A stretch of 64,000 bases of DNA from an uncultured Actinomycetes bacterium. Lineage in GTDB: Bacteria > Actinomycetota > Thermoleophilia > UBA2241. Location of the stretch: assembly GCA_963709345.1 (NCBI GenBank), contig CAVPVX010000004.1:192001-256000 (forward strand). Reading direction: 5' to 3'. Below the pieces are notes generated by a model, which did not search any database, had not been told where the DNA came from, and worked only from the letters and a program-made list of their open reading frames with translations. A program made the position numbers and the translations under genes. Shown here one piece after another: positions 5,774-36,013 of this stretch. Numbering within the stretch: the first letter of the stretch is position 1; every line of letters begins with the position of its first letter.

Positions 5774-7110
5774 GCGTGGCGTTGCCCATCCTCATCATCG
5801 CGGGCCTGATCTTGCTGAACGCGCTGTTCGTGGCCGCGGAGTTCGCCTTCGTCGGCGCACCGCGCACGGCCATCGAGCAGCGTGCCGCGGCCGGTGACCG
5901 GCGTGCGCTCCGCGTGCGCTCGATCCTGCGCGACCCGCGGAGCCAAGACCGCTACCTCGCTACCGCTCAGCTCGGCATCACCGTCGCCAGTCTCGGTCTC
6001 GGCATGTACGGCGAGCACGAGGTCGCGGGGCTCATCGCCGGGCCGCTCGAGGCGATGGGCGTCGACCGCCTGATCGCGGTGCACGCCGTCGCAAGCGTGA
6101 TCGCCGTCATCCTGCTCACCTATCTGCACATCGTCCTCGGCGAGATGGTGCCCAAGTCACTGGCGCTTCAGGGAGCCGAGCGCGCCGCGCTCGCTCTGGC
6201 GCCGGTGATGGCCGGCGTGCGCATCGCGCTGTATCCGCTGGTCGTCGCGCTCAACGGCATCGGGAACGGCATCCTGCGGCTCATGGGTGTCGTCCGCCAG
6301 CGCGGCAGCGTGGAGCAGTACCACACGGCCGAGGAGCTTCGCTACATCGTGCGCGACAGCTTGGAGGGAGGGATGCTGGGGAGTGAGAGCGGGCGCGTGT
6401 TCCAGGAACTCCTGGAGTTCGGCGACCTGACGGCGGGCGAGGTTCTCGTGCCGAGGGTGCGCATCGAGGGCATCCCCCTGCACGCCACCGGTGACGAGCT
6501 GGCCGAGTTGCTCAGGACCTCGCCTCACACCCGGTATCCGGTGTACAAGGACGACCTCGACGACATCGTCGGCATCCTTCACGTGAAGGATGTGCTGAGG
6601 CTCGTGCTCAGCGGCGAACCCGTCTCCGAGACCGACGTGCGCGGCATCCCCTATCTTCCCGAGACGGCGGGCCTCGACGTGGTGCTCGCGGCGATGCGCC
6701 GGGAGAGCACCCAGCTCGCCATCGTGCTCGACGAGCACGGAGGGACCGCGGGCCTGCTGACGATCGAGGACCTCTTCGAGGAGGTCGTCGGTGAGATCGA
6801 GGAGGAGACGGAGGCCCCCCAGAGTCGGGTCGACGCCGAAGGGCGCCTGTACGTTGCCGGCACGGTCCGCGTCGAGGAGGTGGGCGAGCACTTCGACCGC
6901 GTTCTCGAGCACGAGGAGGTCGACACGGTGAGCGGCCTCGTGCTCGCGCTGCTTGAGCGGCCGCCGGACATGGGCGACAGAGTCACCTACAGCGGCATGG
7001 CCTTCGAAGTCGTCGCCGTCGAAGGCTACGGCGTTGCGGAGTGCCTGGTCACGCCGCTCGACGACGACGGCACGGACGAGCCTCAGGCAGACGAGTCCAG
7101 ACGGGCCTGA
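5770..7110 (+). CDS. Hemolysin-family/CNNM (DUF21 + CBS pair + CorC_HlyC) protein
   Basis: GTG start overlaps previous stop; NALFVAAEFAFV, QLGIT, GEMVPKS, TIEDLFEEVVGEI, DTVSGLV. Confidence 0.9.
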   Translation: MSVALPILIIAGLILLNALFVAAEFAFVGAPRTAIEQRAAAGDRRALRVRSILRDPRSQDRYLATAQLGITVASLGLGMYGEHEVAGLIAGPLEAMGVDRLIAVHAVASVIAVILLTYLHIVLGEMVPKSLALQGAERAALALAPVMAGVRIALYPLVVALNGIGNGILRLMGVVRQRGSVEQYHTAEELRYIVRDSLEGGMLGSESGRVFQELLEFGDLTAGEVLVPRVRIEGIPLHATGDELAELLRTSPHTRYPVYKDDLDDIVGILHVKDVLRLVLSGEPVSETDVRGIPYLPETAGLDVVLAAMRRESTQLAIVLDEHGGTAGLLTIEDLFEEVVGEIEEETEAPQSRVDAEGRLYVAGTVRVEEVGEHFDRVLEHEEVDTVSGLVLALLERPPDMGDRVTYSGMAFEVVAVEGYGVAECLVTPLDDDGTDEPQADESRRA

Positions 7111-7255
7111 GCGTCACGTGTCGTGCGCGCGCGGGTAGCGGCCATCCGCCGCCCGCGGGCCCATCACGCGTCCAGCGCCACGGCTGTCAGAGGGCTTGTA
7201 CAATGCCCCCTGAGGCGGTCCCGCCTCAGGGGGGGTCGACGGCGAAGGGCGATCG

Positions 7256-9040
7256 ATGGAGAGACGAGTCTGGCGCTGGTCGCAGCTCAAGCTCCCGCGG
7301 CTGCCTGCACGCGACTGGCTGCCACGCTACGAGCGGCGCTGGCTGGGGCCCGACATCGTCGCGGCGGCCGCGGTCTGGGCCGTGCTCGTTCCCGAAGGCA
7401 TGGCCTACGCTTCGCTCGCCGGTCTGCCGCCGGCGACAGGTCTGTTCGCCGCTCTTGTGCCGCTGCTGGCGTATGCCGCTCTCGGCACGTGCCGTCAACT
7501 GACGGTCGGCCCCAGTTCGGCCGTCGCGGCCTTCTCCGCCGCCGCCGTGGCGCCGGTCGCGGCCGGCGACACGGCGCGGTTCATCGCCCTGTCGGCGCTG
7601 CTGGCCCTCCTGGTCGGTGCGCTTCTCCTCGTCGCCGGGCTCGCCCGGGCGGGGTTCATCGCCGACTTCTTCGCCCGCCCGGTGCTGACGGGGTTCATCG
7701 CCGGTCTGGCGCTCGTGATCGCCGCGGGGCAGGTCGCCAAGATACTCGGCGTCGAGGGCGGCGGCACCGGCTTCATCGGCAAGCTCGAGGTGCTGGTGCG
7801 GGAGCTCGGCTCGACCAATCTGATCTCGCTGGCGCTGGGGGCCGCTTCTCTGGCGCTGATCTTCGCGCTGCGCCACGTCGCGCCCAAGGTGCCCGCGATG
7901 CTGGTCGCCGTCGTGCTGGGCATCGTCGCCGTGTCCCTCCTCGGGCTTCAGGAACAGGGCGTCCGGATCGTCGGGGACATCCCAGCCGGCCTGCCCCGCC
8001 CAGCCATCCCGAGCTTCGGCATCGGGGATGTGACCGGCTTGCTGCCCGACGCTCTGGCGCTCGCCCTCATCGCCTTCGCTGAGTCGATCGCCGGCGCGCG
8101 CGCGTTCGGCGCGAAGCACGGCTACGAGGTCGACGCCGACCAGGAGCTCGTGGCCCTCGGCGTCGCCAACCTGGGCGCCGGTCTCCTGCAGGGCTTCTCC
8201 GTCGACGCCAGTCTCTCGCGATCGGCCGTGGCGAACGATTCGGGGGTCAAGTCACAGCTCTCCGGCATCATTCTCTTCGTCTTCCTGGTGGTGACGATGC
8301 TCTTGCTGATGCCGCTGTTCCACGATCTGCCCGAGGCGGTCCTCGGGGCCATCGTCATCGCGGCCGTGGCTCATCTTGTCGACATCGGCGCGCTGCGCCG
8401 GCTGCGGAGAGCAGACGGCACCGACTTCCTGCTCGCGCTCCTGTGCCTCACCGGTGTCCTGGTCTTCGGCATCCTCATCGGCCTCGTCATCGCCGTCGTG
8501 GTCTCGCTGCTCGCGCTGGTGGTCCGGGCCTATCGACCCACGAGCGCCGTCCTGGGCAGAGCCCCCGGGGCGCTCGACGACGAGACCCTGCGCTATCGCG
8601 GCGTGGACGACCACCCCGAATACGAGACGTTCCCCGGCCTCGTCATCCTTCGCATAGACGGCGAGCTGTTCTTCGCAAACGCGCGCTGGTTCAGCAAGAC
8701 GGTGCGCTCGCTGATCCGCGAGCAACCGACGCCGGTGCGCGAGGTGCTCGTCCATGCCGGCGCCGTTCCTCATCTCGACACCACCGCAGCGGCGCTGCTC
8801 AAGGAGCTGATCAGGGAGTTGAAGGACATGGACGTCGAGCTGGACTTCGCGCGCGTGACGACGCCCCTGTTCGAGAATCTCGATCTCAACGGCATCGTGG
8901 AACTCGTCGGCCTCGATCGCTTCCACGAGACCGTCGCCGCCGGCGTGGCCGACTACCTCTTGCGCCATCGCGGGGCCGGTGACGTGCAGTGGGAGATAGG
9001 TGAACCCCAGTCGCCTGGCCGCGCTCCTTCGGCGTGGTAG
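7256..9040 (+). CDS. SulP family anion permease with STAS domain
   Basis: VPEGMAYASLAGLP, QELVALGVAN, SLSRSAV, DGELFFANA, HLDTTA. Confidence 0.92.
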   Translation: MERRVWRWSQLKLPRLPARDWLPRYERRWLGPDIVAAAAVWAVLVPEGMAYASLAGLPPATGLFAALVPLLAYAALGTCRQLTVGPSSAVAAFSAAAVAPVAAGDTARFIALSALLALLVGALLLVAGLARAGFIADFFARPVLTGFIAGLALVIAAGQVAKILGVEGGGTGFIGKLEVLVRELGSTNLISLALGAASLALIFALRHVAPKVPAMLVAVVLGIVAVSLLGLQEQGVRIVGDIPAGLPRPAIPSFGIGDVTGLLPDALALALIAFAESIAGARAFGAKHGYEVDADQELVALGVANLGAGLLQGFSVDASLSRSAVANDSGVKSQLSGIILFVFLVVTMLLLMPLFHDLPEAVLGAIVIAAVAHLVDIGALRRLRRADGTDFLLALLCLTGVLVFGILIGLVIAVVVSLLALVVRAYRPTSAVLGRAPGALDDETLRYRGVDDHPEYETFPGLVILRIDGELFFANARWFSKTVRSLIREQPTPVREVLVHAGAVPHLDTTAAALLKELIRELKDMDVELDFARVTTPLFENLDLNGIVELVGLDRFHETVAAGVADYLLRHRGAGDVQWEIGEPQSPGRAPSAW

Positions 9041-25095: not shown

Positions 25096-26577
25096 CTAGT
25101 CCTCGAAGGCGCCGTCGTGCATGCCCGCGTAGGGCCTGCCCCAGCCGAAGTCGTCCCATTCGGTCGCGGTATAGGTCATGCTCGCCGTGAGCGGCTCGCC
25201 GAGGGACTCGAGATGCGCCTTGCTCGGGTGCATGACAAACGGCTCGGCCTTGTGGCGGCTGCTCGCCGTGTCCCACTGGGCCTCGGGGATCTCGTCGCAC
25301 TTGCGCAGCAGGAGGTCCCACTCGAAGTCGACCCACTCCTGCAGTTGCTCCAGGAGCTGCTCGTTGCCGGGCAGTGCCATGTGCGTGAAGCGGCCTTGGC
25401 GCTCGAGCCAGGCGCCGAGCGGCTGCTTGTGCCGCGGCCGGTAGGTCAGACGGTACTTGCCGTCGGCGACCTCGAAGAGCGGCCAGTAGCAGCAATCGGT
25501 CGCGAGACGCGACAGCTCGATGCCCTCGTCGTTCTCGGTGCGCCAGCCGCGGGGACAGGGCGAGAGGACGTTGAGGAAGGTGGGCCCCTCGATCGCCAGC
25601 GCCTTCGACGCCTTGTGCATGAGGTCCTGCGGGTCGTGCGGCGAGGACTGAGCCACGTAGGGTAGTCGGTGCGCCACCATGATCTCGGTGAGGTTCTTGC
25701 TGTGACCCACCTTGCCCTGCTGGTCGGAGCCCACGGGGCTCGTCGTCGTCCAGGCGCCGTGTGGGGTGGCGCTGGAGCGCTGGAAACCCGTGTTCATATA
25801 GGCGCCGTTGTCGTAACAGACGTAGAGCATGTCGTGACCGCGGTCCATCGCGCCCGAGAGCGACTGCAGGCCGATGTCGTAGGTGCCGCCGTCGCCGCCG
25901 AAGGCGATGAACTTCACCCGGTCCTCAAGCTTGCCGCGCTTGCGCAACGCGCGGAAGGCCGTCTCGACGCCGGAGAGCGTGGCGGCCGCGTTCTCGAAGT
26001 TGGTGTGGATGTAGCTGCCCTTCCAGGCGGTGTAGGGGTAGCGCGTCGTCGAGACCTCGAGGCAGCCGGTGGCGCCGGAGACGACGTGGTGGCTGTCGAC
26101 CTGTGAGAGGACCTGGTTCACGACGATGGAGGCGCCACAGCCGCTGCAGAGGCCGTGGCCGCTCGAAAGGCGCGGCGGCTTCTTGGCCAGCTCATGCACG
26201 CTGCGCCGATGCTCGTAGTACAGCTCGGTAGGCACGAGGGCGTCGAACTTGCATGCCTCGACGCAGTGCCCGCAGGTCATGCAGCGGCGCTCGTCGAGGG
26301 TGATCGTGCCGGCGAAATGGCGGTCCTTTCCCCTGCCGTGTGTGCGCGAGGGGTCGCGGCGCACGTCGATGCACTCCACCGGGCACACCTTCTTGCAGGC
26401 GCCGCAGAAGGTGCAGGTGTGGCCGCCGCCGGGCTTGGGCGCGAGGTCGAAGAGGCCCGTCCCGTGGAGCTTGTGGACGAGGTCGCGTACGGCGTAGCTG
26501 TTCTCGGGGATGGGGTGGCCGTACGTGAGGGCTTGCGTGTCGGCGGCATCAGTGGGGGTCTTTGGCCTCGCGCTCAT
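25096..26577 (-). CDS. porB: 2-oxoacid (pyruvate):ferredoxin oxidoreductase beta subunit with N-terminal 2x[4Fe-4S] domain
   Basis: CTFCGACKKVCP and CMTCGHCVEAC, then GHGLCSGC, ATGCLEV, GGDGGTYDIG, YDNGAYMNTG, SPCPRGW. Confidence 0.88.
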   Translation of the reverse strand: MSARPKTPTDAADTQALTYGHPIPENSYAVRDLVHKLHGTGLFDLAPKPGGGHTCTFCGACKKVCPVECIDVRRDPSRTHGRGKDRHFAGTITLDERRCMTCGHCVEACKFDALVPTELYYEHRRSVHELAKKPPRLSSGHGLCSGCGASIVVNQVLSQVDSHHVVSGATGCLEVSTTRYPYTAWKGSYIHTNFENAAATLSGVETAFRALRKRGKLEDRVKFIAFGGDGGTYDIGLQSLSGAMDRGHDMLYVCYDNGAYMNTGFQRSSATPHGAWTTTSPVGSDQQGKVGHSKNLTEIMVAHRLPYVAQSSPHDPQDLMHKASKALAIEGPTFLNVLSPCPRGWRTENDEGIELSRLATDCCYWPLFEVADGKYRLTYRPRHKQPLGAWLERQGRFTHMALPGNEQLLEQLQEWVDFEWDLLLRKCDEIPEAQWDTASSRHKAEPFVMHPSKAHLESLGEPLTASMTYTATEWDDFGWGRPYAGMHDGAFED

Positions 26578-26600
26578 GTCGTCCTCGCCTTGATCGGTGA

Positions 26601-26621
26601 TGCGGACAAAGTTTGTCCGCA
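26601..26621. promoter_or_regulatory. Palindromic putative operator TGCGGACAAA-G-TTTGTCCGCA
   Basis: Perfect 10-bp arms 24 bp upstream of the porB-fusion start, in an AT-richer divergent intergenic region. Confidence 0.5.
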
Positions 26622-26754
26622 ATTGGGGGGAAGTTGAAAAGCTACCAAAAGTGCGACGCCCCTACAAGCGTGGCAGGCGTTCGCCGGGCATGCGGCTCAC
26701 GGGCGCGTGGGCGACGGTGGCGCCACGGCCGCGGTCTTCGGCTAGACTCGTAGG

Positions 26755-27696
26755 GTGACCGACGAGCACGAAAGCCGGCCGCCGGCCGCAGGCGAGCGGC
26801 CGGCCGCCCCCGGAGAGATGCTCTCCGCGCGCCGCTCCGCCGCGGGGGCGGCGGCGCTGGTCGTCGTCCTCGCCGTCTCCATCCAGACGGGCTCGGCTCT
26901 TGCCGTGCGCGTCATCGAGTCGGTCGGGGTCATCGAGGCGCTTTGGTTTCGCACCGCCTTCGCGGCGCTGATCCTGGTCGCCGTCAGGCCGCGCGCTTTG
27001 CGTCTGCCGGCCCGCGGTCACCGCCTTCCCGTGGCGGCGCTGTCGGTCACGATGCTGCTCATGAACCTGAGCTTCTACGGCGCCATCAGCCGGGCGCCCG
27101 TCGGCATCGTCGTGGCGATCGAGTTCGTCGGTCCGCTGGCGGTCGCGGTTCTCGGCAAGCGCCGTCGCCTCGACTGGCTGTGGATCGTCCTGGCCGGCGT
27201 GGGCGTCGTCGTCCTGGCCGGCCCTGCCGGGGGAGCGAGCGGGTGGGGCGTCGTCCTGGCTCTCGGCGCCGGCACGTTCTGGGGCATCTACCTTCTGCTC
27301 GCCAAGCGATCCGTCACGGGTCTCGACCCTTTCTCCGTGGCGACGCTGATGATGGTGGGTGCGGCGATTCTGATCACGCCCGCGTTTCTCGTCACCGGCG
27401 TGCGCATCGCCGGCCACTGGGAGGCGATCGCTCTCGGCATCGTGATCGCCGTCGTTTCGTCGGCGTTCCCGTACTTCCTCGAGCTGGTGGCGATCCGCCG
27501 CGTGCGTGCCGCCACCTACGGCGTTCTGCTGAGCATCGAACCGGCTGTGGCGGCGCTGGCCGCGCTCATCGTGCTCGGCCAGCGGATCTCGGCGCTGGAG
27601 GCGGCGGCCATGGCTGCCGTCATGGCCGCCGCCGCCGGCGCCAGCTGGACGAGCGGCGGCGCCGCCGAGGCAGGGGTCGACCTGCCGGCGCCCTGA
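26755..27696 (+). CDS. EamA/RhtA-like DMT transporter
   Basis: SIQTGSALA, MNLSFYGAI, AIEFVGPL, PYFLELVA, LLSIEPAVAA. Confidence 0.9.
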   Translation: MTDEHESRPPAAGERPAAPGEMLSARRSAAGAAALVVVLAVSIQTGSALAVRVIESVGVIEALWFRTAFAALILVAVRPRALRLPARGHRLPVAALSVTMLLMNLSFYGAISRAPVGIVVAIEFVGPLAVAVLGKRRRLDWLWIVLAGVGVVVLAGPAGGASGWGVVLALGAGTFWGIYLLLAKRSVTGLDPFSVATLMMVGAAILITPAFLVTGVRIAGHWEAIALGIVIAVVSSAFPYFLELVAIRRVRAATYGVLLSIEPAVAALAALIVLGQRISALEAAAMAAVMAAAAGASWTSGGAAEAGVDLPAP

Positions 27697-27766: not shown

Positions 27767-28360
27767 GTGGCCAGCCTCAAGGGCAGCAAGACCGAGCAGA
27801 ACCTCCTCAAGGCGTTCGCCGGCGAGAGCCAGGCGCGCAACCGCTACACGTTCTACGCCAGATCGGCGCAAGCAGGAAGGCTACGAACAGATCGGCGCGA
27901 TCTTCCTCGAGACCGCCGAGCACGAGCGCCAGCATGCCAAGCGCTTCTTCAAGCATCTCGAGGGCGGCGTGGTCGAGATCACCGCCTCGTATCCTGCCGG
28001 CCCGTTCGAAGGCAGCACGGCACAGCACCTCGCCGACGCCGCCGCCGGCGAGCACGAGGAGTGGGTAGATCTGTATCCGGCCTTCGCCGAGGTCGCCCAA
28101 GCGGAGGGCTTCAAGGACGTGGCCACCACCTTCCGCATGGTCGCCAAAGCCGAGGCGATGCACGAGGCGCGCTACCTCAAGCTGCGCGGCCAATGTGGAG
28201 GAGAGCGCGGTCTTCGAGAAGCCGGAGAAGGTCCGCTGGATGTGCCGCAAGTGCGGCTACATTCACGAGGGTCACCAAGGCGCTCCAAGGTCTGCCCGAC
28301 CTGCACGCACCCCCAGGCCTACCAGAATACGCGGCGACTTTGCGAGTCGACCGACGTGGC
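27767..28360 (+). CDS. rbr: Rubrerythrin (about 3 frameshifts; end approximate)
   Basis: SKTEQNLLKAFAGESQARNRY, EHERQHAK, GEHEEWVDLYP, EAMHE, WMCRKCGYIH, CPTCTHP across frames. Confidence 0.88.
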
Positions 28361-28401
28361 CTGGCCGACGGCTCGCCGTCTCGCCGGGCCGCCGGGGACG
28401 A

Positions 28402-28438
28402 GACGGGGCGGGAGGCCGGAAGGGCCGCCCGCCCCGTC
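28402..28438. terminator. GC-rich hairpin between convergent rbr and iscU
   Basis: gacggggcgggaggcc-ggaag-ggccgcccgccccgtc, 16-bp stem with one mismatch. Confidence 0.55.
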
Positions 28439-28479
28439 GCCGTAAGGGCGCCGCGGCGCCGTGCGACGCGCGGCGGTCC

Positions 28480-29283
28480 CTACTCGAGCACCACGAACGC
28501 GTCCGCAGTCAGCTCGTATTCCTCGTCTTCGTTCAAGTCGTGCACGCGTATCCGCTCGAGCTCGCCTTCGCCGAGCAGCTCGAGCGGCTGCGCCTCAGCC
28601 AGGATCTTGACGTCGCTGAGGCGCAGGGCCGAGCGCACCGCGGGGCTCACGCTCGGCTCCTTGCCGGTCGTCATCAGCACTACGCGCCCGGTGTGGTCTG
28701 TGAGGTCCATGGCCAGCTGCGCGGCGTGGTCGCCGGTGTCGAGCACGACGACACGTTGGTCGGCGAGGTCGGCGAGATCGTCCACCTTGCGGTAGAGACC
28801 CTTGCTCTCGTAGTCGTCCAGCTTCTGGATCTCGATCTCCGCAACGGCTGCCGGGACTGGGTGGCACGACTTCTCGATCGGCGTCGTGGTCGCGTCCTCC
28901 GGCTTGATGCCCTCGCGCCAATTCTTGATCGCCTCGTGCAACGCATCGGCGGCCAGGTTGCTGCAGTGCATCTTGATCGGCGGCAGGCCGTCGAGTGCGT
29001 CGGCGACGTCGCCGCGACTCACCTTGAGCGCCTCGTCGAGCTGCATGCCGACGACGAGCTCGGTGATCATGCTCGAGGTCGCGACGGCGGAGCCGCAGCC
29101 GAAGGTCTGGAACTTGATCTCCTTGATGCGGTCGTCCTCGACGTCGATGTAGATGTCCATCATGTCGCCGCAGACGGGGTTGCCCACGCGGCCGACGGCG
29201 ACGTTGGGGCCTTCCAGCGTGCCCACGTTCCGGGGGTTGCGGAAGTGCTCGAGGGTCTTCTCGCTGTACTGCGTCGATTTCAT
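28480..29283 (-). CDS. iscU: Fe-S scaffold IscU/NifU fused to a degenerate thioredoxin-reductase NAD(P)H-binding domain
   Basis: HFRNPRNVG, NPVCGD, FGCGSA, LPPIKMHCSNLA; extra C-terminal Rossmann-like domain of about 110 aa. Confidence 0.88.
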   Translation of the reverse strand: MKSTQYSEKTLEHFRNPRNVGTLEGPNVAVGRVGNPVCGDMMDIYIDVEDDRIKEIKFQTFGCGSAVATSSMITELVVGMQLDEALKVSRGDVADALDGLPPIKMHCSNLAADALHEAIKNWREGIKPEDATTTPIEKSCHPVPAAVAEIEIQKLDDYESKGLYRKVDDLADLADQRVVVLDTGDHAAQLAMDLTDHTGRVVLMTTGKEPSVSPAVRSALRLSDVKILAEAQPLELLGEGELERIRVHDLNEDEEYELTADAFVVLE

Positions 29284-29318
29284 CGTCAGGCGCCTTTCGG
29301 ATCAGATGGTCGCGGCCG

Positions 29319-30560
29319 TCACGAGGTCGCGGGAGCGTGTGTCTTGTAGAGGGGCGAGAGGGCGCGGAGCCGGGCGATCACGCCGGGGAGTACGGCCATG
29401 ATGCGCTCGACGTCGTCCACGGTGCTCCAGCGCCCGAAGGTGAACTCGAGCGAGCCGTGTGCCTCCTCGTGCAGCAGCCCGCACGAGATGAGCGTGTGCG
29501 ACGGCTCCAGCGTCTTGGAACTGCAGGCGGAGCCCGTGGACGCGGCGATGCCCTCGTCGCGCAGCGACAGGATCATCGCCTCGCCCTCGACCGCGTCGAA
29601 GCGGAAGTGGGCGTTGTTCGGCAGCCGCTCCTCGGGGTGGCCGTTCAGGTGTGAGTCGGGGATCTCGGCCAGCACGCGCTCGACCAGTCGATCGCGGATC
29701 GCCCGGATGCGCGACACCTCGGTCTCCATGTCCGCGCCCATGATCTCGGCCGCCGCGGCCATGCCGGCGATGCTCGCCAGATCTTCGCTGCCGGAGCGCA
29801 AGCCTCGCTCCTGGCCTCCGCCCAGCAGAACGGGTGCGATCTGCACGCCCTTCCGTACGTAGAGCGCACCGAGACCGCGGGGGCCGTACAGGTCGTTGCT
29901 CGAGAGGCTGAGGAGGTCGACCGGCACGGCGTTCATGTCGATCGGCAGCAGGCCTTCTGCGGCGACGGCGTCGCTGTGCAAGGCGATGCCCGTGCCGTCG
30001 AGCATCTCGGCGATCGCGGCGATGGGCTGGACGGTGCCGATCTCGCTGCTTGCCCACTGCACCGAGACGAGGATCGTCTCGTCGGTGATGCGGGCGCGCA
30101 GCTTCTTCGGCGACACGCGCCCGTACAGATCGATCGGCACGCGAGTGACGCGGAACCCGTTCTTCTCGAGGTACTTGGCGATGTTGAGGATGCTGATGTG
30201 CTCGGCCTCACTGATGATCACGTGGTCGCCCTTGCGCTTGTTGCGCAGGGCGTAGCCGACGACCCCCAGGTTGGTGGCTTCGGTGGCCCCTCCGGTGAAG
30301 ACGATCTCGCGCGGCTCGGCGCCGAAGAACGCGGCGACCCTGCCGCGCGCCTCCTCGAGCGCCTCGGTCGCCACGTCGCCCACGGTGTGCAGCGAGGCGG
30401 CGTTGCCGAACTTCTCCGTCAGGTACGGCAGCATGGCCTCGACCACTCGCGGGTCGACGGGTTTCGCCGACTGGTAGTCGGCGTAGACGACGCCGGCGCG
30501 GGCCAGCGCCTTGCCGGGGTCGGCCAGGGTGACCTGGTGGTCGGTGCTTGCGGCGGTCAC
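29319..30560 (-). CDS. iscS: IscS/NifS-family protein with PLP-Lys replaced by Asp
   Basis: FTGGATEATN, EH, EIGTVQP, GGGQERGLRSG, STGSACSS retained; SAHK.YGP reads SSNDLYGP. Confidence 0.9.
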   Translation of the reverse strand: MTAASTDHQVTLADPGKALARAGVVYADYQSAKPVDPRVVEAMLPYLTEKFGNAASLHTVGDVATEALEEARGRVAAFFGAEPREIVFTGGATEATNLGVVGYALRNKRKGDHVIISEAEHISILNIAKYLEKNGFRVTRVPIDLYGRVSPKKLRARITDETILVSVQWASSEIGTVQPIAAIAEMLDGTGIALHSDAVAAEGLLPIDMNAVPVDLLSLSSNDLYGPRGLGALYVRKGVQIAPVLLGGGQERGLRSGSEDLASIAGMAAAAEIMGADMETEVSRIRAIRDRLVERVLAEIPDSHLNGHPEERLPNNAHFRFDAVEGEAMILSLRDEGIAASTGSACSSKTLEPSHTLISCGLLHEEAHGSLEFTFGRWSTVDDVERIMAVLPGVIARLRALSPLYKTHAPATS

Positions 30561-30570
30561 CGGCCCGCCC

Positions 30571-30933
30571 TCAGAACCACATCGTCGCGTCGGCGTCCAA
30601 GGCGAGGTCGTTGAGCGTCGCCGCGCCGACGATCTTGACGCCGTCGATCAGCTCGACCGTCTCCCAGCCGAGCATCTGCTTGGAGGCTTCGCACACGTAC
30701 ACCGGGATGCCCATGTCGATGGTCTTCCGGAGCATCTCGGCGACGCTGGGGAAGCTGCCCATCTGCATCTTCTCCGCCTCGCCGGGCTTGAGCACCGTGA
30801 GACTCACGCCGAGGTAGTAGACGGCCGGGTCGATACCCATGGCCTTGGCGCTCTGGGCGAGCACGAGGGGCGAATACTGTCGCTCGGGGGAGTCGCTGGT
30901 CTGCACGTAGAGGATGTTCTTTTCGTCGGCCAT
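30571..30933 (-). CDS. DsrE/DsrF-family sulfur-relay protein
   Basis: 120 aa, GIPVYVCEAS conserved Cys, GVKIVGAA, ends in F. Confidence 0.8.
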   Translation of the reverse strand: MADEKNILYVQTSDSPERQYSPLVLAQSAKAMGIDPAVYYLGVSLTVLKPGEAEKMQMGSFPSVAEMLRKTIDMGIPVYVCEASKQMLGWETVELIDGVKIVGAATLNDLALDADATMWF

Positions 30934-30968
30934 GATGGTCCTTTCGGCGGTCGCGGTCCGGTGGCGGT

Positions 30969-31211
30969 CTACTTGAGCCGGCGGAGCAGGATGCGCAACT
31001 CGCCGCCCTCGTTCTCGAGCTCGACGACCTCGTGGCCTGCGCGCTTGGCGAAGCGCTTCAGGTCTTCTTCGGCGGCGGGGTCGTCGGCGATCACTTCAAG
31101 CACTTCGCCGATCTCTATCGCGTCGATGTTCTCGCGGGTCTGGAAGAGCGGCTCAGGGCAGTAGAGCCCGATGCAGTCGAGTGTGCGTGCGGGCTTCGGT
31201 TCGTCTGCCAT
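30969..31211 (-). CDS. tusA: TusA/SirA sulfur carrier
   Basis: LDCIGLYCPEP, GEVLEVIADDP; AAAGGAG RBS. Confidence 0.92.
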   Translation of the reverse strand: MADEPKPARTLDCIGLYCPEPLFQTRENIDAIEIGEVLEVIADDPAAEEDLKRFAKRAGHEVVELENEGGELRILLRRLK

Positions 31212-31263
31212 CTGGTCTCCTTTCGAGTTTGAGGAGGCCGTAGCTCTCCCTCCAGCGCTGTCT

Positions 31264-31288
31264 ATACCCGACCAGAGCAGTTGGTATT
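31264..31288. promoter_or_regulatory. IscR/Rrf2-like operator ATACCCGAC-N7-GTTGGTAT
   Basis: Imperfect inverted repeat resembling IscR type-1 consensus ATASYYGACTRwwwYAGTCRRSTAT; overlaps a minus-strand TATAGA -10-like hexamer 50 bp upstream of tusA. Confidence 0.55.
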
Positions 31289-31509
31289 CACCAGGCGGCC
31301 GAGCTCCCCGGCACGGCTGGGCTTTCGCACTCGGCGTCGCCGGTCTGGCCGGGCAGACACGTACGGGTCGAGGTTGGTGCTGAGCTGTCTGTATCACTCC
31401 GCTCTGGCGTGCAGGGTCGCGCTGTCGCGGTCACTCCGCATAGCCACCGGAACGCGTCCGCGTCGATCTCGAGGCAAGTCGTCACGGTCGTCTCGTTGCG
31501 GCGACGGAG

Positions 31510-32898
31510 TCACGCGGGAGTGAAGACGAAGCCGGCCGCGAAGACGCGCTCACACGCCGCCGCAGCGGCGGCGTCATAGCGCGTCCCGGCGCCGCTGCTC
31601 ACCTCGTGCAGCGCCGCCTCGATGCCCAGTGAGGCGCGGTAGGGCCGGTGCGACGCCATCGCTTCGACGACGTCGGCAACGGCGAGGATGCGCGCCTCGA
31701 GCATCATCTCGTCGCCGGCCAGGCCGGCGGGGTAGCCTGAGCCGTCGAGGCGCTCATGATGCTGGAGGACGATGTCGGCGACCGGCTGCTCGAAGCCGAT
31801 CGGTGCGAGCATCTCGCGCCCGGCCTCTGGATGGACCTTGACGAACGCAAACTCGACCTCCACGAGCTTCGACGGCTTGGCGAGGATCTGAGCCGGCACG
31901 CTGAGCATGCCGATGTCGTGGACGAGGGCGGCGAGACGCAGGCCTTCCACGGCCACCGGCGTCAACCCGAGGGCCTCGCCGACGACCACGACGAGCTGCG
32001 TCACGCGCACCTGATGCCCGGCGGTGTACGGGTCGTGCGCGGCGACCATCGACCCCATCGCTTCCACCGCACCCTCCACGGTACCACGCAACCGATCCGT
32101 CCCCTCGAGCAGCGCCTGCATGGCCCCGCGCCGCTCGCTGATGTCGTCGAAGACGGTGATGTAGGTGCCCGGATCGGTGCTGTAGACAGAGACGGACTGC
32201 CACGTGCCGGGCGGCTCCAGCTCGATCTCCATGGTCTCCGGGGTGCCGGTGCTCGCCACGCGATCGTACGTCCTGAGGAGCCTTGGGCCTATCTGCCGGA
32301 AGCCGGGGATGACCGCTGATCCTGAACGGCCGATCACATCGCTGAGTCCGGTGAGGCGCTCGAATGCCGGGTTGACTTCGAGGTAGACCCAGTCGACTGG
32401 CTCGCCGGCCTGGTCGTACACGAGACGACAGTAGGCATACCCGTTCAGCAGGTTGCCGATGAGCGAGGCGTGGCGCTCCTCCGTGTCTGCCAGAGCGCGA
32501 CGGCGGGCGCGCTCGTCGATGGCGCGTTCGACCATGAGCGGCAGGCGCGCCATCTTGTCCTTGAGCACGCAGTCGTCGGCGCCGTTCTTGAGCAGTTCGA
32601 CGGTCGCCTCCTCGCCGATCGTGCCCGAGACGCAGATGAAGGGCGTGTTCGGCCGCGCTGTCCTGGCGAGCTCGAGCGCCTGATGAGCATTGAAGGCCGG
32701 CAGCGAGAAGTCGGCGAGGATGACGTCGTGGTCGCCGCTGCCGAGGAGCTTCTCGAAGGCGCGGCCGTTCTCGGCCACGTCGAGCTCGAGCTCGTATCCG
32801 GCGCTGCGCAGCGCCTCCGCCGTCAGCTCGGCGTCGGGGGCCGAGTCCTCGAGGCAGAGGACTCGGAGCCGCCGCGCTCGTGTGCGCTCGTCGTTCAC
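31510..32898 (-). CDS. REC-PAS-HD-GYP c-di-GMP phosphodiesterase
   Basis: CLED/ILAD receiver, VNPAFERLTG PAS, LVHDIG, HHERLDGSGYP. Confidence 0.9.
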   Translation of the reverse strand: MNDERTRARRLRVLCLEDSAPDAELTAEALRSAGYELELDVAENGRAFEKLLGSGDHDVILADFSLPAFNAHQALELARTARPNTPFICVSGTIGEEATVELLKNGADDCVLKDKMARLPLMVERAIDERARRRALADTEERHASLIGNLLNGYAYCRLVYDQAGEPVDWVYLEVNPAFERLTGLSDVIGRSGSAVIPGFRQIGPRLLRTYDRVASTGTPETMEIELEPPGTWQSVSVYSTDPGTYITVFDDISERRGAMQALLEGTDRLRGTVEGAVEAMGSMVAAHDPYTAGHQVRVTQLVVVVGEALGLTPVAVEGLRLAALVHDIGMLSVPAQILAKPSKLVEVEFAFVKVHPEAGREMLAPIGFEQPVADIVLQHHERLDGSGYPAGLAGDEMMLEARILAVADVVEAMASHRPYRASLGIEAALHEVSSGAGTRYDAAAAAACERVFAAGFVFTPA

Positions 32899-32899
32899 G

Positions 32900-33350
32900 T
32901 CAGGGGCCGACCTGCGGCGGTCGTTCATTGATCAGCGCCCAGAAGATGCCGAGCTTCTCGCACCGCTTCCATGAAACTGTCGAACGCCACGGGCTTGACC
33001 ACGTAGGCGTTCACTCCCAGGCCATAGCTCGTCAGGATGTCCTGTTCTTCCCGCGAAGAGGTGAGGATCACGACCGGGAGCATCCTGAGCGCCGGGTCCT
33101 CGCGGATCTCGCGCAGAACCTCGAGGCCGTCCTTGCGCGGCATCTTGATGTCGAGCAGCACGACTGCAGGATGACAGGGTGCGCGGTCGGCGAAGATCCC
33201 CTCGCAGCGCAGGTACTCGAGCGCCTCCACGCCGTCGCGGGCCACCGTGACTGCGTTCGCGAGGTTCTGTGCAGCGAGCGCCTCAAGCGTGAGCTCGACG
33301 TCGTCGGGGTTGTCCTCAGCGAGCAGGATCCCCGGGTACTCCTTGGTCAC
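32900..33350 (-). CDS. Single-domain response regulator (Rcp1-like), frameshift near C-terminus
   Basis: LLAEDNPDD, LLDIKMP, ILTSS, NAYVVKPV; natural tail KLGIFWALINE in a shifted frame. Confidence 0.85.
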
Positions 33351-35901
33351 GATGTCGTCTCCTTCCGTTGCGGCAGAGAGAAGTAGAATGTCGCACCTTT
33401 GCCCGAGTGCGCCTTCGGCCCACACGCGGCCGCCGAGCCTCGTGACGATGCGATGGACGTTGGCGAGGCCGATGCCGGTGCCCTCGAACTCGCCGGCGCT
33501 GTGCAGGCGCTGGAACACGCCGAACAGCTTGTGAGCGTACTCCATGTCGAATCCCACGCCATTGTCGCGCACGAAGAAGACGTCGCCGGTCTCGTCGGTG
33601 TCGCCGTGCTCGGCGCCGACCTCGATCCGGGCCGGCGCCCTCCCGCGCGTGTACTTGACTGCGTTACCGAGCAGGTTTGCCCAGACCTGGCGCAACAGGG
33701 CGTGGTCGGCGACAACGCCGGGGAGTGGCCCGATGGCCCACTCGATCTCGCGACCGTCGGCCTCGTGCCGCAGCGGCTCGAGGGCTTCGGCCAGCACCTC
33801 ATCCATGTCGACGGCCGCGATCTTCAACTCCGCCCGCCCGGTGCGCGAGAACTGCAGCAGGTCGTCGATGAGCACGCCCATCTCGCGCACCGAGCTCGAG
33901 ATCCTGTCGACGTAGTGGCGGCACTTCTCGTCGAGTCCGTCTCCCGCTCGCTCCGCGAGCAGAGCGGAGAAACCGCTGACGTGGCGCAGCGGCGCACGCA
34001 GATCATGCGATACCGAGTACGCGAACGCCTCGAGCTCCTTATTGGCCGCGTCCAGTTCCGCCGTGCGGTCGAACACCCGCTGCTCGAGTTCCGCGTTGAG
34101 GCGTTCCACCTCTTCCTCGGCCGCCTTGCGCGTCGTGAAGTCGACGACGGTACCCTCGATCCGCTGAGACTCACCACTCTCGTCGCGCACCAGGTGAGCA
34201 TTGAGCAGGACGAAGAGCCTGGAGCCGTCGGACTTCACCGCCTCAGCCATGAAGCTGCGCGCGTAGCCGTCGCTCGTGAGCAACGCCAGGTACCGGTCCC
34301 TGTCGGTGGGGTGCCGCCAGAAGTCCGGTGTGTGCTGCCCGCGCAGGTCGGCATCGCCGTCGATCCCCAGGATCCGGCAGTAGGCAGGGTTGTGGTCGAG
34401 CAGCACGCCATCGAGCGACACGCTGTAGTAGCCCTCGTCGAGCGACTCGACCGTTTCTCTGAACTTGCGCTCACTGGCGCGTAGCTCCTGCTCTCTGGCG
34501 ACTCGCTCGGTGATGTCCTCGACGATGGTGGCGAAGCGGTCGCCGCCCTGTGGCACCACCGACACCTGGAAGTGCCGATCGAGCGGCTCGAAGTAGGACT
34601 CGAAGCGGCGCGGGAGCATCTTCGTCCACGGTCCGGGAGTAGACGTCCAGGAAGGGCGCCTCCGGGGTCTCGTACGACGGCGGTTGCGAGCCGCCGCGCA
34701 TCTGTTCGACCGCAGACCAATCTGGCGACATAGGCGGGGTTGACGTCGTCGACCCGGTAGTCGGTCGGATCGCCTTGCGCGATCGCGCACGAGCTCATGC
34801 ATGGCGACGCCCTCGGTCATGGTCTCGAAGAGCGAGCGGAACTTGACCTCGCTCGCGACCAGTTCCGTCGTGACTTGTGATTCGCGGGCGCGCCACAGCA
34901 GCAGGGTACCTGCAGCGGCGAGCGCGACGACGAGGAGGGTGAAACCCGCCGTCAGCCAGGCGCGGCTCTCGATCGGCCCCAGCACCTCGGCGGTGTCCAT
35001 CTTCGCGATGACGAACCAGCGCACGTCCGGCACCGGCTCGAGCGCGGCGATGACGGGGACGCCGCGGTAGTCGACACCCTCGACGATCCCGGTCGCGCCG
35101 CGCACGGCCATTGACGCCGGCAGGTGCTGGTCGCTCAGCGGGCGGGTCAGCCGCAGCGCCGTATCTTTGCGGTGGCGCAGCTCGTTGAGGAACACGACCC
35201 TGTCCCCGCGCCGCTGGACGACCAGGGTCTCGCCCGAGGCGCTCTCGAGGGGCCAGTCCTGGATGAGGGGATACAGGTAGTCGTGCGGGTTGATGTGAAG
35301 GACGACGGCGGCGATCGCCGGAGCGCCGGGCTCGTCGGCGAGCACCGGCGCCGCCATCTCCAGCCGCGCGTTTCCGGACGCGCCGAGGTAGAGTCCCGTC
35401 GTCTCGGCGCGGCTCGTGTGCAGGGTCGTGCGCACCAGCGCCCGCACCGGTATGCCCAGCGCGTGCGCCGCGTCCTCGGGCTCGCGGACCACGACCGCAC
35501 CGGTGCGGTCGACAAGCACGACGTCGACGTAGTCATAGTATTCCTGGATGGCCGCCAGCTGGGCGCGGACATCCGCCTCGGTCGCCGCTCCGCCGCGGCC
35601 TGCGAGCAGGTCGGCGACCGCGGCCGCGAGCAGTCGATCGCTGCGGATCACCTCCGCGTCGGCGCGTCGCTCACCCAGCCAGACGGAGATCTGGTCGGCC
35701 TTGAGCCGGGCGATGGCCACCAGCGAGCCCTCGGCGGCGTGCGCGCATCGAGCGCGCCTGCTCTCGCCAAGCCCAGTACGCGAGTCCGACGACGAGGACG
35801 GCGACCACGAGGAAGCCGGCGATGAGCAGGCCTTGTCCGCGTCGTCGGCTACTCGATCCGTGCCGACCCGCTTCTCCTTGGGTCTCCCTCGACGTCCGCA
35901 C
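33347..35901 (-). CDS. Membrane sensor histidine kinase (Cache-like + 2 PAS + HisKA/HATPase), several frameshifts
   Basis: TM, DYRGVPV Cache-like motif, PAS, YSVSHDLRAPLR, NLLGNAVK, DNGVGF, GTGIGL, GATFYFSL across frames. Confidence 0.85.
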
Positions 35902-35970
35902 GAATCCCCTTCTCGCCGGTGGGCATCGACACTCCTCCTCACCGTACCCGGTGAGGCACGATAAGCAACG

Positions 35971-36013
35971 GAGTGGCCCAACGGGCCTGCGGCGCAGGCC
36001 CGTTGGGCCACTC
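35971..36013. repeat. 43-bp near-perfect palindrome
   Basis: gagtggcccaacgggcctgcg-g-cgcaggcccgttgggccactc (21-bp arms, 1-nt centre). Confidence 0.9.

Follow-up and report, generated by a model that had tools for sequence, protein, structure and literature searches.

The window analysed here is a stretch of 64,000 nucleotides (nt) from an uncultured actinobacterium of the class Thermoleophilia (assembly GCA_963709345.1, contig CAVPVX010000004.1), and its minus strand carries a four-gene operon encoding, in order, the sulfur carrier TusA, a DsrE-like protein, a homologue of the cysteine desulfurase IscS in which aspartate replaces the lysine that binds pyridoxal 5'-phosphate (PLP), and the iron–sulfur (Fe-S) scaffold protein IscU, with spacers of 35, 10 and 35 nt (Table 1). 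Below, the two kinds of IscS are called Asp-type and Lys-type after the residue at this position. Gene coordinates and Pfam domains confirm the layout given by a sequence-only reading of this DNA, which had described four co-oriented genes 10–35 bp apart. The GC content of the region is even (0.68–0.70) and a terminator scan found no terminator-like site between the four genes. The host is a soil or sediment actinobacterium with a 3.11 Mb genome in 11 contigs that is 98% complete, and the database relatives of the cassette proteins are labelled Thermoleophilia or Actinomycetota.

Table 1. Position and content of the cassette genes, the parts of IscU and the flanking features in the window (aa, amino acids; E, expectation value).
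Feature	Position	Strand	Description
Candidate operator	31264..31287	-	24-nt imperfect palindrome, ATACCAAC-N7-GTCGGGTAT (coding strand), ~50 nt before the tusA ATG
tusA	31211..30969	-	80 aa; PF01206, E 6.4e-25
dsrE-like	30933..30571	-	120 aa; PF02635, E 2e-14
iscS	30560..29319	-	413 aa; PF00266 (Aminotran_5), E 1.9e-66
iscU	29283..28480	-	267 aa; PF01592 NifU_N at residues 5-124, E 2.2e-44
IscU scaffold domain, residues 1-124	28912..29283	-	NifU_N; ligands C38, D40, C63, H106, C107
IscU linker, residues 125-148	28840..28911	-	predicted disordered; Cys140
IscU C-terminal domain, residues 149-267 and stop	28480..28839	-	NADPH-subdomain fold, thioredoxin-reductase-type ferredoxin-NADP reductase
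Rubrerythrin gene, convergent on iscU	27767..28445	+	PF02915, E 4.5e-18 on one piece

An IscS without its catalytic lysine

IscS has Asp223 (codon 29892–29894) at the position of the PLP lysine and Cys346 (codon 29523–29525) within G-S-A-C-S-S on the loop, and the alignment thus agrees with the earlier claim of an IscS that lacks the PLP lysine and has the SACS loop Cys. The segment reads S-S-N-D-L-Y-G-P in the window protein as against S-G-H-K-I-Y-G-P in Escherichia coli IscS, and the aspartate stands where a second IscS of the host genome has lysine. The protein scores under every NCBIfam equivalog cut-off, and its best solved match is IscS2 of Archaeoglobus fulgidus (4eb5_A, E 3.8e-139), which reads S-S-N-D-I-Y-G-P. 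The exchange of lysine for aspartate does not make this IscS a novel protein type: it is the known ‘dead IscS’ type of A. fulgidus.

According to the accessible part of a 2022 review, A. fulgidus IscS2 has Asp199 at the lysine position, is bound to pyridoxamine 5'-phosphate and has no desulfurase activity, and its proposed role was no more than that of a scaffold partner, with one of its cysteines ligating the [2Fe-2S] cluster (PMC8918507); the available portion of a further source has the IscS-IscU pair holding a [2Fe-2S] cluster (PMC13066941). With this pair (PDB 4EB5, 4EB7, 4HVK; D199K variant, 4R5F) the window shares the S-S-N-D motif, the loop Cys, the position of iscU directly after iscS and the ligands of IscU. 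The window IscS differs in being bacterial (Thermoleophilia-like, 44–54% identity to the Archaeoglobaceae homologues), and the window IscU in having a 119-residue reductase-derived tail which the A. fulgidus IscU chain (153 residues) lacks. The catalytic lysine is likewise missing from IscS1 (MA0808) of the Methanosarcina acetivorans isc1 cluster, which also holds IscU1 (MA0807); the accessible text of that study describes IscS1 as insoluble and uncharacterised there (PMC7585200). By analogy with A. fulgidus, the window IscS would be without desulfurase activity and would contribute a cysteine to the coordination of a [2Fe-2S] cluster on IscU.

The motif S-S-N-D-x-[YH]-G-P-x-G-x-G-A was back-translated to a degenerate DNA pattern, which matches the window once (0 expected by chance), and contigs of one genome per species were scanned with it. 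At least 120 stretches matched; all locus counts given here are among the 120 matches listed, every one of which encodes an IscS homologue. Their archaeal sources are Bathyarchaeia, Asgard archaea, Thermoplasmatota, Methanosarcinales, Methanocellales, Methanoperedens with relatives among ANME, and Hadarchaeota; their bacterial sources are Rokubacteria/Methylomirabilota, Actinomycetota, Desulfobacterota and a few others.

A residue census covered 92 full-length IscS rows from these loci with the host Lys-type IscS as reference, the positions H205, K206, Q183, R354, H104, D180, T76 and S203 being named in what we take to be E. coli numbering. The H205-K206 position reads N-D in 91 of the 92 rows; the exception, H-K, comes from a second gene of locus L095 that is of Lys type. 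Ala occupies the Q183 position in 74 rows, and the six commonest residues at the R354 position (V, L, E, C, Q and M) account for 89 rows and do not include Arg (Glu in the window IscS, Leu in A. fulgidus). All four residues (Q, H, K and R) are present in the host Lys-type IscS. H104, D180, T76, S203 and the loop Cys are each kept in all 92 rows. On this pattern of aligned residues, catalysis and substrate binding are lost jointly and the cofactor pocket and mobile cysteine retained. Fold-type-I PLP enzymes all use the lysine, to our knowledge; the Asp-type IscS is derived, not primordial, since the PLP pocket of a lysine-bearing ancestor survives in it.

Two further lysine-less variants came to light. 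An IscS reading A-S-Q-D (L148:1501-2670) lies in a Thermoplasmata genome that also holds an S-S-N-D cassette, with no tusA within 1.5 kb, and one reading S-A-H-Q, in which Lys is changed to Gln (L173:1435-2679), lies in an Archaeoglobaceae genome together with iscU and a weak TusA match.

Linkage of tusA and dsrE to Asp-type IscS

The pieces retrieved by the scan are not centred on iscS, and a locus was taken as assessable when it extended at least 900 bp upstream (n=89) or at least 500 bp downstream (n=104) of that gene. The sequence-only reading had proposed examining whether Asp-type IscS co-occurs with tusA and dsrE, and the outcome is positive: tusA lies directly upstream in 80/89 assessable loci and dsrE upstream in 55/89, both together in 51 and neither in five. 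Downstream, iscU is present in 73/104. The make-up of the cassette varies between lineages, with tusA and dsrE in 8/8 and iscU in 9/9 actinomycetotal loci, and tusA in 10/10, dsrE in 0/10 and iscU in 0/13 loci of Rokubacteria.

As a matched control, 40 genomes bearing the Asp type were searched with the host Lys-type IscS; two or more IscS-family matches were found in 34 of them, and 30 loci were listed with flanks of 1.5 kb. No Lys-type gene had tusA beside it (0/22) and there was one weak DsrE-like match, as against tusA beside 7/7 and dsrE beside 6/7 of the S-S-N-D genes recovered in the same search; the remaining locus was an A-S-Q-D variant (n=1) with no tusA. Fisher tests that ignore relatedness gave p values of 6e-7 (7/7 versus 0/22) and 2e-16 (80/89 versus 0/22). 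A sample of 31 Archaeoglobaceae genomes, with A. fulgidus itself outside it, had matches in 14, and their S-S-N-D loci carried tusA and iscU in 13/13 and dsrE in 6/13. One locus from a congener of A. fulgidus (L164; its IscS scores 678 bits against 4eb5_A and is not identical to it) has all four cassette genes, so that iscS stands behind tusA and dsrE as it does in the window. The linkage of the carriers to Asp-type IscS is real and strong. We found no publication on a link of TusA or DsrE to Asp-type IscS, although subscription journals or closed supplements could hold one.

On a Methanophagales contig (L095:4408-5604, minus strand, and 6338-7534, plus strand), a Lys-type IscS gene stands back to back with a tusA-dsrE-iscS(Asp)-iscU cassette.

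The carrier proteins

TusA carries Cys18 in C-P-E-P and a second Cys13. It matches Pfam PF01206 well above the cut-off (87.2 bits; cut-off 28.6), in keeping with the earlier description of a TusA with the CPEP Cys, and falls below that of the NCBIfam TusA equivalog (59; cut-off 78); among solved structures it matches E. coli TusA best (1dcj/3lvj_C, E 2e-13). Cys18 is kept in 86/86 cassette TusA proteins. Cys13 was considered as a defining feature of the cassette and rejected: it is kept in 71/86 and is Thr in 7/8 Asgard copies.

The second gene had been read as a DsrE-family protein with a VCEAS Cys, and both parts hold, with a score of 54.2 bits on the broad Pfam DsrE family (PF02635; cut-off 22.7) and with Cys81 in V-C-E-A-S, a residue invariant in 59/59 cassette copies. 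On the NCBIfam DsrE2 model (NF047629) the protein reaches 35.1 bits where 210 are required, with a match confined to the last third, and is hence not DsrE2 proper. These profile matches place it in the DsrE family without assigning it to a named subtype, and its best solved match is 3mc3 (E 2.2e-10). Both carrier genes are single-copy in the host genome and occur in this operon only (tblastn). A match to PF04358 (DsrC/TusE) was not found in the 98% complete host genome. The host thus lacks the make-up of a Tus/Dsr relay, which has three DsrE/F/H-type subunits and DsrC/TusE: tblastn found one DsrE-family gene, and the TusBCD trio and TusE/DsrC of the E. coli relay were not found in the host genome.

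Complex prediction for DsrE and TusA gave a score of 0.42 (best control, 0.00), with partner predicted local distance difference test (pLDDT) values of at least 88 and at least 95% of contacts shared between runs. The mark used is reached by 58/80 solved complexes and 2/110 mismatched pairs, but scores of 0.60 or less include only seven of the 80 solved complexes and both of the mismatches, and the prediction is weakly suggestive of a DsrE-TusA complex.

IscU and its reductase-derived tail

The sequence-only reading had seen an IscU with intact ligands plus an extra Rossmann domain. The ligands C38, D40, C63, H106 and C107 are indeed present, and the set (C, D, C and H-C) is kept in 77/77 cassette IscU proteins; the window scaffold domain matches the solved chains 7c8m (E 2.9e-50) and 4eb5_C (E 4.7e-44). 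On NCBIfam models the protein scores 183.1 bits with NifU_clost, just below the cut-off of 187.9, and 67 bits with SufU. The extra domain stood up as a reductase-derived NADPH-subdomain fold, but the nucleotide motifs and the flavin adenine dinucleotide (FAD) domain are missing from it. Residues 149-264 match the NADPH subdomain of Bacillus subtilis YumC (3lzw; E 2.3e-7 by sequence), and Foldseek matches the tail to the same chain (E 1.7e-10, root mean square deviation 1.9 over 118 columns, 28% identity), then to other ferredoxin-NADP reductase, AhpF and thioredoxin reductase chains, whilst the N-terminal domain matches IscU structures. The AlphaFold2 model, from a 20-sequence alignment, has a mean pLDDT of 84.2 and a predicted template modelling score of 0.51, and consists of two well-folded domains joined by a linker that is predicted to be disordered over residues 134-148 (pLDDT < 50). 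Cys140 in this linker is conserved in at least 90% of long-form IscU sequences (alignment A1, 20 sequences).

Compared with YumC (3LZW) and Bacillus cereus FNR2 (6GAS/8C16), whose NADPH subdomain has the same fold, the window tail has no FAD domain, has D-T-G in place of G-G-G, has lost H-R-R and has no C-x-x-C. Its glycine motif reads L-D-T-G-D-H-A, in which the first two glycines of G-x-G-x-x-A are gone and the third is kept. The tail is thus not a thioredoxin-reductase-type ferredoxin-NADP reductase but the fold of its NADPH subdomain with degenerate motifs, and the short tails of other loci, as their aligned motifs have it, likewise retain the third glycine only and have lost H-R-R. The tail family is small, since a search of 1.84 billion proteins gave 56 representative clusters at E <= 0.001, and the best 120 tail relatives are 77–90% identical. 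Tailed IscU proteins occur in 21/94 listed loci with at least 900 bp downstream, mostly in a 20-row clade that includes Asgard rows.

Three loci of Methanoperedens/Methanosarcinales type encode a whole reductase fused to IscU (L044:375-1739, L050:4261-5658 and L120:4497-5906; 455–470 aa). In all three the fused part is a flavoprotein of thioredoxin reductase type with a complete Pyr_redox_2 domain (291/291 profile positions). The fusions of L050 and L120 preserve the FAD and NAD(P)H motifs, reading G-G-G-P-G-G, G-G-G-D-S-A and H-R-R, and lack C-x-x-C. Such a protein would be a scaffold with a built-in reductase. We infer that an electron donor was formerly fused to the scaffold and that the window tail is a relic of it without the usual nucleotide binding; the series from whole fusion to truncated tail suggests that electrons, too, are delivered locally. 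Sulfur that comes in as S(0) calls for a reductase, and a supply from free sulfide does not. A once-fused donor is in keeping with S(0) delivery, but cluster coupling uses electrons as well.

Phylogeny of the Asp-type IscS

In a FastTree phylogeny of 116 IscS rows, 93 Asp-type rows fall on one side of a branch with an SH-like support of 96, and on the other side are 22 Lys-type rows from the same genomes and the Lys-type paralogue of L095. Ten actinomycetotal rows including that of the window form a clade (support 99) nested in the 20-row clade mentioned above (support 100), whose other members are seven Asgard rows and one row each from Bathyarchaeia, Thermoplasmata and Thermodesulfobacteriota. 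Rooting on the Lys-type rows puts archaea on the deeper branches, which speaks for transfer into bacteria, and the window cassette was probably acquired from archaea by gene transfer. The actinobacterial copies show the cassette moving between domains as a unit, and they offer a bacterial source of these proteins for biochemistry which may be easier to express.

Other Fe-S genes of the host

Elsewhere in the host genome an Rrf2 gene is followed by an IscS with S-G-H-K and by a 144-aa IscU. The genome also encodes a VC1184-type cysteine-desulfurase-like protein (410.6 bits; NCBIfam cut-off 352) and, on contig C6 (31413-33094), has two adjoining genes, one SufC-like (176 bits) and after it a short one of ~317 aa that is SufB/SufD/SmsB-like (70.9 bits). 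Both score below their NCBIfam cut-offs, the second one far below, and together they may form a divergent minimal SUF-like pair. The sequence-only reading had noted that no hscAB, fdx or iscA is present, and none was found within 3 kb of the operon; in the 98% complete host genome there was no match to the HscB C-domain and none to the A-type carrier (PF01521), fdx having been outside the genome-wide search. Cytochrome bd is present, and a haem-copper oxidase was not found in the same 98% complete genome. From this gene content the host looks oxygen-avoiding and equipped with several minimal Fe-S systems, and cysteine could still be its ultimate sulfur source.

An IscS-family/IscU-family pair is common to the window cassette, canonical ISC (IscRSUA-HscBA-Fdx) and the MIS system, and the absence of chaperones and of an A-type carrier makes the window system resemble MIS. 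From both it differs in the missing PLP lysine, the added sulfur-carrier genes and the reductase relic on IscU. It does not class as canonical ISC, given the loss of the lysine and no A-type carrier or HscB C-domain found, with fdx not searched.

A proposed relay-fed assembly line and its alternatives

With some reserve, we lean towards reading the window cassette as a bacterial copy of the Archaeoglobus-type lysine-less IscS-IscU pair that has TusA and DsrE-like partners and would work as an auxiliary, relay-fed Fe-S assembly line. Sulfane sulfur would be held as a persulfide on DsrE Cys81 and TusA Cys18 and passed to the mobile loop Cys346 of the dead IscS, and thence to the cysteines of IscU, where with iron and two electrons a [2Fe-2S] cluster would form. 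Cys346 would double as the fourth cluster ligand, as in the A. fulgidus crystal structure, so that the dead IscS would be a docking platform and sulfur relay and not an enzyme. The IscU tail would be the remnant of a fused electron donor of ferredoxin-NADP reductase type, whole in some archaea, and in its reduced form would still be under selection, probably as a docking or structural module. In its oxygen-avoiding host the line would run alongside the IscS(Lys)-IscU set and the SufC/SufB-like pair. Of this reading, the gene content, residues, folds, linkage and phylogeny come from the data, and the direction of flow, the origin of the sulfur and the part played by the tail are deduced.

In E. 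coli, IscS makes persulfide from cysteine and loads TusA. Because the window IscS cannot make persulfide, sulfur in the window system would flow in the opposite direction, between partners whose families are known to exchange persulfide from the E. coli IscS-TusA complex (PDB 3LVJ); the window TusA is closest to that of E. coli. The sequence-only reading had cast the dead IscS as a relay or cluster ligand for IscU, an idea that coincides with the interpretation published for the A. fulgidus IscS-IscU structure (PMC8918507, accessible part). In its available text, the same review asks how A. fulgidus IscS-IscU can build clusters when it has no desulfurase activity, and leaves the question open (PMC8918507). 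TusA almost always, and DsrE often, stand directly ahead of Asp-type IscS and not beside the Lys-type IscS of the same genomes, which makes them concrete candidate sulfur donors, and the carriers thus offer a testable idea of sulfur supply for dead-IscS systems.

The sequence-only reading had gone further, to a stand-alone minimal Fe-S pathway that draws on inorganic sulfane sulfur independently of cysteine. The genome does not bear out the stand-alone part, as the SufC-like/SufB-like pair and the Lys-type IscS-IscU are also there, and cysteine-independence and an inorganic sulfane source are unproven; the canonical Rrf2-IscS-IscU set or the VC1184-type protein could load TusA from cysteine. 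We take seriously, whilst thinking it rather unlikely, a self-sufficient PLP-free line in which DsrE and TusA capture non-cysteine sulfane sulfur and load the loop Cys of the dead IscS, with reduction by an IscU-fused reductase or by a relic and a separate donor; polysulfide, thiosulfate and persulfides from damaged clusters would be the candidate sources. If true, such a line would be a third sulfur feed for Fe-S biogenesis, beside cysteine desulfuration and free sulfide, and one widespread in anaerobic archaea and several bacterial phyla, though still derived and not primordial.

Several points weigh against the relay-fed line. DsrE, and even IscU, are not obligatory neighbours, as the 34/89 loci without dsrE and the pattern in Rokubacteria make plain, and the scan covered lysine-less IscS of the S-S-N-D kind, to which variants such as those of L148 and L173 do not belong. 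The Asp type being one clade, the linkage is best seen as one old, conserved cassette spread by descent and transfer and not as many independent associations. The window tail cannot supply electrons on its own, its nucleotide motifs and FAD domain being missing, and we found no measured sulfur-transfer step in print for any member of the cassette.

The carriers would also be unneeded if the dead IscS-IscU pair built its clusters from free sulfide, which is the published hypothesis for the crystallised A. fulgidus pair (PMC8918507, as far as its accessible text goes) and which tells against a relay in the same way; TusA and DsrE would then have another task, for instance buffering or detoxifying reactive sulfur, or regulation. 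MIS and SMS, two minimal systems, are said in the available portion of a further source to be able to use sulfide (PMC13066941), and the Asp-type loci without dsrE, together with the five that have neither carrier, suit this explanation. It is hard to square with tusA upstream of nearly all Asp-type genes and beside none of the 22 Lys-type ones, with the invariant carrier cysteines and with the whole reductases fused to IscU in three loci, for which sulfide as sulfur source gives no need, and we consider it unlikely. Sulfur might instead flow outward if the cassette repaired or dismantled oxidised clusters in response to oxygen stress, with IscU and IscS handing the sulfane sulfur over to TusA and DsrE to be used again. 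The rubrerythrin gene 35 bp from iscU in the window (adjoining also in L103 and L033) fits such a role, as do the host's cytochrome bd, its haem-copper oxidase not having been found, and the presence of rubrerythrin, flavodiiron protein or desulfoferrodoxin genes, mostly on the same strand, in 27/120 listed loci from seven lineage groups, a count that stands without base-rate control and whose apparent enrichment is an impression against a rough expectation. Yet the finished cluster in the captured A. fulgidus complex suits assembly just as well, and gene content gives no direction of flow because persulfide transfers are reversible; outward flow seems to us quite unlikely.

If the operon were not an Fe-S assembly system but a relay that thiolates tRNA or a cofactor, like TusA-TusBCD and with the IscU-like protein as a sulfur acceptor in the manner of SufU, this would account for the company of TusA, DsrE/TusD-family and IscS-family proteins, with which the E. 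coli 2-thiouridine relay begins too. The full set of scaffold ligands in 77/77 IscU proteins speaks against it, as do the far higher score of IscU on the NifU scaffold model than on SufU, the single DsrE-family gene with DsrC/TusE not found in the host genome, and the [2Fe-2S] cluster on the homologous A. fulgidus pair, so that we regard a thiolation relay as very improbable. The loss of four catalytic or substrate-binding residues could also mark the lysine-less IscS as a decaying, functionless pseudo-enzyme. This is scarcely credible for a protein whose best 120 database relatives are at least 78% identical, whose loop Cys and pocket residues are invariant in 92 archaeal and bacterial rows, and whose genes keep a conserved order and are covered by contigs from RNA libraries.

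Upstream region, transcripts and neighbouring genes

The earlier claim of an Rrf2-like operator stood in part: a palindrome does lie upstream of tusA (Table 1), and its binding by an Rrf2 protein remains a candidate role suggested by sequence. In length and dyad symmetry it may resemble an IscR site. The repeat search missed it and reported only an unrelated 10-nt palindrome, and promoter and terminator scans of 28300-31600 found nothing. Sites of the form ATACC-N13-15-GGTAT number two in all in the 3.1-Mb genome, the tusA palindrome being one, and ATAC-N14-18-GTAT was found upstream of tusA in 2/13 other loci examined, those of the close relatives L103 and L086, with spacer letters changed relative to the window copy. 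By eye, a similar half-site is present in several other actinomycetotal loci. An operator shared by tusA and the Rrf2 gene on contig C7 was also considered, since CCAAC-N7-GTYGG stands both in the promoter of the latter and in the tusA palindrome. It was dropped as not significant: the genome has 20 copies of the relaxed core CCRAC-N7-GTYGG, and none of its flank-extended versions matches the two sites together.

RNA-library contigs from two studies cover all four genes at 85–99% likeness (from relatives, with DNA carry-over possible), and a single contig of 1974 nt spans iscU, iscS and the end of dsrE. There is no RNA-contig depth over 31228-31400, where a DNA run (X1) reaches 31297. The gap might point to the start of a transcript, but low conservation of the spacer at 85% likeness could equally explain it.

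Directly upstream of tusA, at 31510-32928 on the minus strand, lies a gene for a response regulator with PAS and HD-GYP domains, homologues of which (E down to 1e-41) adjoin tusA-iscS(Asp) in eight Rokubacteria loci and were found in no other locus, so that this kind of neighbour recurs in two unrelated phyla. It is preceded by a hybrid histidine kinase gene (32925-36011, minus strand; PAS, HisKA, HATPase_c and receiver domains) whose translation contains midway an Arg/Pro-rich stretch of ~60 residues that is apparently out of frame and may result from paired compensating indels. The rubrerythrin gene of the window is readable only with about three frame changes, near 27870 (from tblastn with the intact L103 copy) and near 28195 and 28290 (from the translations); the window gene is either broken or affected by indel errors of the assembly; such errors are suggested by the frame anomalies of both the rubrerythrin and the histidine kinase gene.

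Open reading frames outside the cassette in the 120 listed loci were clustered and representatives scanned against Pfam. The recurrent neighbours were rubrerythrin (15 loci), subunits of 2-oxoacid:ferredoxin oxidoreductase (14), flavodiiron protein (12), desulfoferrodoxin (10) and a protein combining CoA-disulfide reductase, rhodanese, TusA and rhodanese domains (eight; five Asgard, two Bathyarchaeia and one Geoglobus). The last, exemplified by an 806-aa CoA-disulfide-reductase-like flavoprotein with two rhodanese domains and a TusA domain (L013:1666-4083), lies 0.9–6.6 kb from the cassette in the eight loci and by its domains is a possible source or sink of sulfane sulfur. The window matches the recurrent pattern in having both rubrerythrin and, ~2 kb past it, the beta subunit of a 2-oxoacid:ferredoxin oxidoreductase, which bears a two-cluster ferredoxin domain at its N terminus (25096-26622, minus strand); an EamA-type permease gene (26755-27696, plus strand) lies just beyond the rubrerythrin gene.

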